A stretch of DNA of 64,000 nt from a virus (Duplodnaviria; Caudoviricetes). Both the position numbers and the translations under genes were made by a program. Location of the stretch: the IMG/VR virus record IMGVR_UViG_3300036797_000054, positions 32,001 to 96,000 of that record. One strand, written 5' to 3'. Shown here piece by piece: positions 56,185 to 56,280 of the stretch (its first letter is position 1; every line of letters starts with the position of its first letter). The notes under the pieces are model-generated. The model saw nothing but the letters and a program-made list of their open reading frames with translations. It did no database searches and was not told the DNA's origin.

Positions 56185-56280
56185 GCGCCGGTAGCTCAGT
56201 GGTCAAACCTGACCCTCGGGTTGGGGAAGAGCAGCGGTCTTTCAAGCCGCAGGTCGGCGGTTCGATCCCGCCCCGGCGCA
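56185..56280 (+). tRNA. atypical tRNA, anticodon TTC (Glu), 31-nt D-loop with inserted hairpin; no encoded CCA
   Basis: GCGCCGG/CCGGCGC, GCGGT-CTTTCAA-GCCGC, GGCGG-TTCGATC-CCGCC. Confidence 0.8.

Follow-up and report, generated by a model that had tools for sequence, protein, structure and literature searches.

A tRNA(UUC) with a fifth helix in its D-loop

The window analysed here, a stretch of 64,000 nucleotides (nt) from a Caudoviricetes genome (positions 32,001 to 96,000 of IMG/VR record IMGVR_UViG_3300036797_000054), encodes on its forward strand a tRNA with the anticodon UUC whose D-loop is extended by an additional helix, hereafter the five-armed tRNA(UUC). The phage record as a whole is linear, 122,744 bp long and ~80% complete, with a G+C content of 66.6% and nearly all genes on one strand. 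The parts of the tRNA are as follows.

56185-56280, + strand: five-armed tRNA(UUC), 96 nt, CCA not encoded (61.9 bits to the tRNA model RF00005; 107.1 bits to the family model R1, described below)
56185-56191 and 56273-56279, + strand: acceptor strands GCGCCGG and CCGGCGC, followed by discriminator A at 56280 (read from the sequence)
56194-56232, + strand: D-arm, with stem GCUC (56194-56197) / GAGC (56229-56232) around AGUGGU and the insert
56204-56228, + strand: extra D-loop arm, made of CAAA (56204-56207), CCUGACC (56208-56214), CUCG (56215-56218), GGUUGGG (56219-56225) and GAA (56226-56228)
56234-56250, + strand: anticodon arm GCGGU-CUUUCAA-GCCGC, anticodon UUC at 56241-56243
56256-56272, + strand: T arm GGCGG-UUCGAUC-CCGCC (sequence, RF00005 and covariation)

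The match to RF00005 spans the model end to end (positions 1-71; whole-window E 5e-11) and places 25 inserted nt in the D-loop; its score exceeds the gathering threshold of 29 bits, although the fifth helix sets the RNA apart from a four-arm cloverleaf with an ordinary D-loop. All seven acceptor pairs are Watson-Crick, U8 and A9 join the acceptor to a D-stem with C11-G24 and C13-G22, and the variable loop AGGUC has 5 nt. The core features of a tRNA are all intact (U8, A14, G18G19, U33, a 7-nt anticodon loop and the T-loop UUCGAUC). The insert of 24-25 nt is placed 3' of G18G19U20 and forms a 7-bp hairpin capped by CUCG; once 24 nt are deleted, the D-arm becomes the fully canonical GCUCAGUGGUAGAGC. 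An earlier note, made from the sequence alone, had described perfect acceptor, anticodon and T arms, the loop CUUUCAA, a discriminator A and a hairpin within the D-loop, and its coordinates and each of these points proved exact. Because the minimum-free-energy fold of the single sequence is not a cloverleaf, the support for the cloverleaf and its extra arm is comparative. ARAGORN called no tRNA in the window, or a spurious tRNA-Trp when introns were allowed, and it names chromosomal copies of the same design 'tRNA-???(ggag)' or 'tRNA-Pro(ggg)'.

A conserved RNA family in soil bacteria and phages

A pattern scan of viral contigs recovered the same tRNA design in five further contigs (L003, L004, L005 and the identical L006, and L007). 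Looser scans returned at least 120 matches in species-representative genomes, the listed ones being almost all chromosomes of Solirubrobacterales/Solirubrobacteraceae metagenome-assembled genomes (MAGs), and at least 120 matches in metagenome contigs. Among 230 full-length copies, 49 were distinct, 43 of them exactly 96 nt long. The phage tRNA shows every trait of this family, namely a cloverleaf with a D-loop hairpin, the loop CUUUCAA, a discriminator A and a length of about 96 nt, and its core, in which the anticodon arm is unchanged, has 91.7% identity to the chromosomal type.

We aligned 24 distinct family members (alignment A1) and built the model R1 from them. The predicted pairs were formed in 98.7% of alignment cells, against a shuffled mean of 83.4% (none of 500 shuffles reached the observed value) and at most 50% in slid-partner controls, and compensatory double changes occurred in 16 of the 28 pairs. 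The acceptor kept 7/7 pairs across the 24 relatives, four of them with double changes, whereas the D-stem and the anticodon loop were invariant. Within the extra hairpin, all six main pairs showed compensatory changes and 96.5% of cells paired; the single strands flanking it are conserved as well (YAAM on the 5' side, RAA on the 3' side), and the insert length is nearly fixed. Given this covariation and the conservation of flanks and length, the alignment indicates that the extra arm is a selected structure. The earlier note had named absence of the insert from relatives as an outcome that would overturn its view of the RNA, and the insert turned out to be conserved. Under R1 the phage tRNA scored 107.1 bits and ordinary tRNAs in the same search at most 61, a comparison in which the phage sequence is itself part of the model. 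A class-level search with R1 scored only 27 candidates per genome and is therefore unfit for calling presence or absence.

Among the viral contigs, the 12 kb taken from L004 encode 29 tRNAs. A canonical tRNA-Glu(CUC) is among them, and the UUC anticodon is represented by two divergent five-armed tRNAs, the canonical tRNA-Glu(UUC) being absent. The second five-armed tRNA (L004 801-892, - strand) is strongly divergent, with D-stem GCUG/CAGC, D-loop hairpin GGCGG-CAAACA-CCGUC and anticodon loop UUUUCAC. Since the UUC anticodon and a D-loop hairpin occur together in both of these divergent sequences, this suggests that the arm is tied to the identity of the tRNA(UUC). In the stretches taken from the complete or nearly complete phage records of L005 and L007, no more than one standard tRNA accompanies the five-armed one. 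An all-against-all blastp comparison of this phage with the five related viral loci detected no common proteins, so the tRNA does not appear to be part of a conserved phage module, and none of 50,697 phage records matched the locus by blastn. Sequencing runs matching positions 55880-56340 of the window were soil-metagenome DNA only, with no RNA run listed; one of these DNA runs probably gave rise to the record. Full-text literature searches turned up no report of a D-loop arm in tRNAs of bacteria or phages, of a five-armed tRNA, or of a LysRS paralogue associated with tRNA-Glu.

Replacement of the canonical tRNA-Glu(UUC) in carrier genomes

Bacterial genomes that carry the five-armed tRNA (hereafter carriers) were compared with relatives from the same GTDB family, in which a normal tRNA-Glu(UUC) has the D-arm GGUGUAGCGGUUAGCAC. 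The complete 3.57-Mb chromosome of one carrier (G001) encodes 46 tRNAs; these include the five-armed tRNA(UUC) and a canonical tRNA-Glu(CUC), the latter having U11-A24 and 4 nt in its variable loop, and the canonical tRNA-Glu(UUC) is absent. A single unified pattern, derived from the actual tRNAs of the lineage and applied alike to carriers and non-carriers, detected the canonical tRNA-Glu(UUC) in 64 of 101 sampled family genomes and in none of the three sampled carriers (G001, G170 and G214, picked by eye from the loose pattern GGTN{15,45}GAGCN{6}YTTTCA). The canonical gene was detected in 2 of 50 further carrier genomes and in 64 of 98 non-carriers from the same family (Fisher p 4e-14). One of the 101 sampled genomes (G153), which carries a flag as unpublished, adds a single count to these tallies and to that of the LysRS paralogue below, and supports nothing else. 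As far as genome sequences can tell, the distribution is that expected if the five-armed tRNA has replaced the canonical tRNA-Glu(UUC). G001 also encodes a 71-nt tRNA(UUC) (L288, G001:C1:419040-419110) that lacks G18G19 and has the T-loop CUCGUAC; it was found in G001 alone, and this lack of conservation rules it out as a general reader of GAA.

Reading of GAA in carrier genomes

We next consider which amino acid GAA specifies in carriers. Across 33 orthologue alignments from carrier loci, the codons aligned with GAA were GAG (51.5%), GAC (9.2%), CAG (5.0%) and AAG (2.1%), an exchange profile that resembles those of the synonymous pairs GAT/GAC and CAA/CAG and is unlike that of lysine codons. 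We also examined columns of near-invariant glutamate in an alignment of lysyl-tRNA synthetase (LysRS)-type genes that includes genomes with the canonical tRNA and was matched to solved LysRS structures. In carriers, GAA occupied 38 of 277 such positions (13.7%), close to its overall share of 14.8%, and the conserved sites bearing it include the glutamate of the motif-1 'ETP' and that of 'ALEYG', where a residue other than glutamate would be damaging. From the GAG-like exchange and the use of GAA at near-invariant glutamate sites, we conclude that GAA is read as glutamate in carriers, with the five-armed tRNA as the only conserved candidate reader. A comparison of glutamyl-tRNA synthetase (GluRS) genes offered only 11 GAA codons, and the RtcB protein of the phage, aligned to solved structures, was too divergent for the meaning of GAA in phage genes to be read.

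Identity elements and a LysRS-type paralogue

In Escherichia coli, GluRS relies on U34, U35, C36 and A37, on U11-A24, on U13-G22:A46 and on the absence of residue 47, while class II LysRS recognizes the anticodon triplet and A73 (PMC9976931). The phage tRNA has the full anticodon set for glutamate within its loop CUUUCAA. For lysine, it has A73, U34 and U35, with C36 in place of U36. The earlier note had held that the body is not that of a tRNA-Glu and is closer to a lysine type. Both statements were borne out: U11-A24 and U13-G22:A46 are missing, residue 47 is present, and after removal of the insert the closest body in a host-lineage genome is tRNA-Lys(UUU), at 79-82% identity.

This likeness to tRNA-Lys is paralleled by a synthetase gene. 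In 30 of 120 listed chromosomal loci, the five-armed tRNA is preceded on the same strand, at a distance of 0.1-2.6 kb, by a 506-aa class II synthetase of the Lys/Asp/Asn type, in the conserved gene order lgt-prmC-synthetase-(SDR)-tRNA. Three carriers (G001, G214 and G257) have two full-length LysRS genes each, and two genomes with the canonical tRNA have one. A maximum-likelihood tree separated a housekeeping clade containing all genomes from a paralogue clade containing carriers only, each supported at 100/100. With similarity to the tRNA-adjacent paralogue, measured by score, as a crude marker of presence, we detected the paralogue in 47 of 50 carriers and in 1 of 98 non-carriers, the exception (G184) having a high-scoring LysRS and no five-armed tRNA that we could find. 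Co-occurrence and adjacency thus give the tRNA a dedicated paralogous synthetase of the kind seen in tRNAProX/ProRSx-type pairs. Besides the housekeeping copy, five genomes (G242, G246, G266, G270 and G286) have two LysRS genes of the paralogue type.

The paralogue retains the catalytic motifs and scores 489 and 474.7 bits to TIGR00499 (housekeeping copies, 531 and 568); this passes the equivalog cut-off of 427.6, which accounts for its annotation as LysRS. Several residues of the lysine side-chain pocket are changed (Y280F/M, N424G/S, F426G/D and E428D/E, together with E414D; E. coli LysS numbering, assigned by motif in an alignment checked against solved LysRS), and 116-119 of 120 close homologues share the altered motifs. 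These features suggest that the paralogue is a working enzyme whose amino-acid pocket differs. At the motif-1 'ETP' glutamate (column 268), nearly all aligned paralogue genes have GAA and the housekeeping genes GAG, so that making the paralogue would require the very codon of its presumed tRNA partner. A search of this phage and of the other five viral records turned up no class IIb synthetase, so the phage tRNA would depend on a host with the matching enzyme. For this reason, and with a G+C content that also fits (66.6% vs 67.6%), the host of the phage is probably a carrier of the Solirubrobacterales.

Codon use and genes around the phage tRNA

The phage uses GAA at 17.7 per 1000 codons, compared with 10.3 in carrier-lineage genes, and AAA at 8.6 compared with 2.7. 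These are its two most over-used A/T-ending codons, and they match its two tRNAs with standard anticodons, the only other standard tRNA of the record being a normal tRNA-Lys(UUU) (G000 101017-101089). The five-armed tRNA lies within a cluster of structured RNAs and next to a gene of tRNA metabolism, with the following features on either side.

55921-56029, + strand: YrlA-like (bacterial Y-RNA-like) RNA (RF02553 41.2 bits, E 5e-7, below the gathering threshold of 69; -69.2 kcal/mol, z -4.7)
56048-56136, + strand: tRNA-like RNA #2, 48 nt upstream of the tRNA(UUC) (RF00005 41.6 bits; R1 47.4 bits; fold)
56281-56326, + strand: strong hairpin directly after the tRNA, without a U-tract (-32.8 kcal/mol, z -3.46)
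56333-56713, + strand: PTH2-type peptidyl-tRNA hydrolase, 126 aa, directly downstream (PF01981 26.7 bits, cut-off 23)

The YrlA-like RNA combines a long closing stem with a module of T-arm, closed-acceptor hairpin and D-arm; a TROVE/Rsr (Ro60) gene was not found in the 122.7-kb phage record. The tRNA-like RNA #2 has acceptor and T stems like those of tRNA-Arg, an expanded anticodon arm ending ...GCGAAA-GGCGG and an odd 8-nt T-loop. Exact-pattern scans of viral contigs detected no relatives of either RNA. An analogous odd tRNA-like RNA lies 47 nt upstream of the five-armed tRNA in L007, an unrelated complete 52-kb phage (1003-1125, + strand), and this type may constitute a second RNA family travelling with the five-armed tRNA. 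The hairpin at 56281-56326 is possibly a processing or termination signal; a scan for consensus promoters and terminators around the RNA cluster called none, this hairpin included. The PTH2-type protein, which has no NCBIfam match, could counter toxins that block or acetylate aminoacyl-tRNA. The phage also encodes an RtcB RNA ligase (PF01139, 141.8 bits) outside the window, at G000 ~117.1-118.4 kb (L001 1105-2418). Upstream of the RNA cluster lie an N6/N4 DNA methylase (PF01555, 120.9 bits) and a weak match to a Mor-like transcription activator (50998-52626 and 53227-53958, both + strand).

Proposed function and alternative explanations

Taken together, these observations suggest that the product of the phage gene is a working elongator tRNA that decodes GAA as glutamate, follows a design of the host clade and was borrowed by the phage for codon supply, a reading to which we assign a probability of about 0.62. 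The same tRNA probably also reads GAG. The five-armed tRNA(UUC) would be native to a soil clade of Solirubrobacterales in which it has taken over the slot of the canonical tRNA-Glu(UUC), and a phage of that clade would carry its own copy, together with tRNA-Lys(UUU), to increase supply for two A-ending codons used far above the host level; the phage copies may also stand in for host tRNAs lost in infection. The RNA would be expressed with the D-loop arm retained in its mature form as a recognition or anti-recognition element. As the phage encodes no synthetase for tRNA(UUC), a host enzyme would have to charge it, presumably with glutamate. Because the D-helix determinants of GluRS are absent and the carriers checked have one GluRS each, such charging would call for a GluRS of unusual specificity or else a class II enzyme that works with glutamate; we infer that the co-occurring LysRS-derived paralogue is the most likely agent, rather than GluRS, and that the arm may keep the five-armed tRNA apart from ordinary LysRS, which might otherwise charge its Lys-like body. 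More tentatively, and as a possibility rather than an expectation, the paralogue could itself be a class II glutamyl-tRNA synthetase: a duplicate of the tRNA-Lys/LysRS pair, re-tooled through a change from UUU to UUC, a rebuilt pocket and an orthogonalising D-loop arm, would then have taken GAA from the class I GluRS/tRNA-Glu(UUC) pair in this Solirubrobacterales clade, and phages would have captured the tRNA half.

Several observations weigh against this reading or parts of it. The augmented D-helix of tRNA-Glu is lacking, with C11-G24, C13-G22 and the 5-nt variable loop AGGUC in its stead, and only one GluRS is present in every carrier genome checked. The acidic residue (D/E) retained by the paralogue at position 428 is not a design for binding a carboxylate and argues against a simple glutamate pocket. 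The replacement and co-occurrence counts come from related genomes that are not phylogenetically independent, so that the p-value given above overstates independence, and these genomes are mostly MAGs, which makes absences soft. The GAA codons at conserved glutamate columns are partly inherited within clades and reflect few independent events. Finally, as the phage encodes RtcB, PTH2 and tRNA-like RNAs, replenishment after tRNA damage is an equally natural motive that fits as well as codon compensation and does not exclude it.

That last motive has a stronger form. Both tRNA(UUC) and tRNA-Lys(UUU) are classic targets of anticodon nucleases, and the two phage genes could be anti-defence spare parts which replace host tRNAs cut in infection, acting with RtcB, PTH2 and the tRNA-like RNAs while the five-armed tRNA remains a real decoder. 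The genes and RNAs of tRNA repair type on this phage, and the near absence of other standard tRNAs from the L005 and L007 stretches, fit such a role, for which there is a published model in which phage tRNAs serve anti-defence and escape nucleases through mutations of the anticodon loop (PMC10264068). The anticodon stem-loop of the phage tRNA is, however, of the chromosomal type and shows no such escape mutations, which also disfavours the proposal of the earlier note that this is a nuclease-resistant variant. No nuclease against tRNA(UUC) is known in the host lineage, and the choice of the two tRNAs is already explained by codon bias. We therefore consider anti-defence an unlikely explanation, albeit one compatible with a decoding role. 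A pure decoy, also suggested earlier, would go further: the arm would block use by the ribosome, and the RNA would titrate some tRNA-binding factor, be it a nuclease, a synthetase or another. The gene does adjoin two tRNA-like RNAs that are plainly non-canonical, and the arm probably emerges beside the elbow, the part of a tRNA contacted by RNase P and the ribosome. Yet the canonical core is intact throughout, and the same RNA fills the tRNA-Glu(UUC) slot in chromosomes, where it replaces the canonical isoacceptor, and is found in phage tRNA arrays, which leaves this idea highly improbable.

The remaining alternatives concern the fate of the arm and the amino acid attached. Protein-spliced D-loop introns occur in tRNA genes of Archaea and some algae, and the 24-nt hairpin could similarly be excised and the halves rejoined, for instance by RtcB, to leave an ordinary 72-nt tRNA with the arm confined to the precursor. 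Exact removal of 24 nt does restore a textbook D-arm, and RtcB is encoded by the phage and by many bacteria. However, no splicing endonuclease is known from bacteria; there is no bulge-helix-bulge (3-4-3) motif, the helix being flanked by unequal single strands of 10 nt and 3 nt; and the tight conservation, in bacteria as in unrelated phages, of the flanks (YAAM...RAA), the stem length and the size of the insert, along with the D-loop hairpin of the divergent second tRNA(UUC) of L004, is a better fit to a structural part of the mature RNA. Excision is accordingly a rather poor candidate. In a mistranslation scenario, the paralogue would load lysine or another residue that is not glutamate, GAA would be ambiguous or reassigned, and the phage copy would spread, exploit or poison that meaning. 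The Lys-like body, A73 and U35, the dedicated LysRS-type enzyme with its rebuilt pocket and acidic residue 428, and the precedent of tRNAProX/ProRSx pairs (PMC10404621) are all consistent with it. Against it, GAA occurs at normal frequency at catalytically important glutamate sites and swaps with GAG as a synonym would, and the only conserved GAA reader of carriers is taken up by phages that over-use GAA. We thus judge recoding improbable. The earlier note had offered a mischarged or recoding tRNA as one option, of which the recoding or mischarging itself finds no support in these exchanges (GAG 51.5%, AAG 2.1%) or in the conserved sites, while an unusual route of charging agrees with a paralogue that tracks the tRNA.

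Comparison with known systems

With the canonical bacterial tRNA-Glu(UUC), the five-armed tRNA shares U34, U35, C36 and A37, the slot in the tRNA set and, apparently, GAA as glutamate. It differs in lacking U11-A24 and U13-G22:A46, in having a 5-nt variable loop that includes residue 47, a discriminator A, a Lys-like body and the fifth helix, and the canonical GGUGUAGCGGUUAGCAC type of related genomes is unrelated to it in sequence. With tRNA-Lys(UUU) and class II LysRS it has in common the closest body, A73, U34, U35, the 5-nt variable loop and an enzyme of the LysRS family that tracks it; C36 rather than U36, the extra arm, an enzyme from a separate clade with a rebuilt pocket and GAA as glutamate set it apart. 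The tRNAProX/ProRSx systems of Streptomyces and Kitasatospora are likewise actinobacterial, with body and anticodon of different amino acids and a dedicated paralogous synthetase, but they perform regulated mistranslation alongside the normal tRNA and have no extra arm (PMC10404621). In carriers, by contrast, the normal isoacceptor is gone and the meaning of the codon kept, which speaks against a case of mistranslation. Like other phage-encoded tRNAs (PMC10264068), the two of this phage serve codons over-used relative to the host and accompany genes of tRNA repair type; unlike the usual ones, the five-armed tRNA copies a lineage-specific, non-canonical host design and has no escape changes in its anticodon loop.

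Elongator tRNAs are regarded as four-armed, or as five-armed only through the variable arm. The long variable arm of class II tRNAs (Leu, Ser, Tyr and Sec) is also a fifth helix, and there a recognition element for the synthetase, but it lies at positions 44-48 between the anticodon and T stems, whereas the arm described here lies within the D-loop after position 20. Protein-spliced introns of Archaea, red algae and nucleomorphs also interrupt the D-loop of an otherwise canonical tRNA gene; here, a bulge-helix-bulge is absent, the setting is bacteria and phages, and size and flanks are fixed. The translation machinery therefore appears to tolerate more than this view allows, namely a conserved D-loop helix by the elbow, in both bacteria and phages. 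The pairing of the tRNA with a re-tooled LysRS, with GAA kept as glutamate, may represent a natural hand-over of a codon between synthetase/tRNA lineages. If the paralogue does use glutamate, it would make a second exception to the synthetase class rule, LysRS itself being the first, and with the tRNA it would form a ready-made orthogonal pair for engineering of the genetic code. In practice, standard tRNA finders miss or misname the gene, so that genomes and phages appear to be devoid of a GAA reader, and the paralogue passes for an ordinary LysRS. The phage tRNA may also serve as a host-range marker for a specific uncultured soil clade, and the window adds to the family a phage-borne member with a codon-usage rationale and a neighbourhood of tRNA repair type.

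Other observations

Two further unusual tRNA genes were noted in the bacterial genomes. G001 encodes a 73-nt 'tRNA-Leu(UAA)' without a long variable arm (L258). In another genome, a tRNA-Arg(UCU) gene (L326, G035:C6:130752-130843) has its first 17 bases, comprising the 5' strand of the acceptor and the start of the D-arm, tandemly duplicated; the gene is broken, or the duplication is an artefact of assembly.

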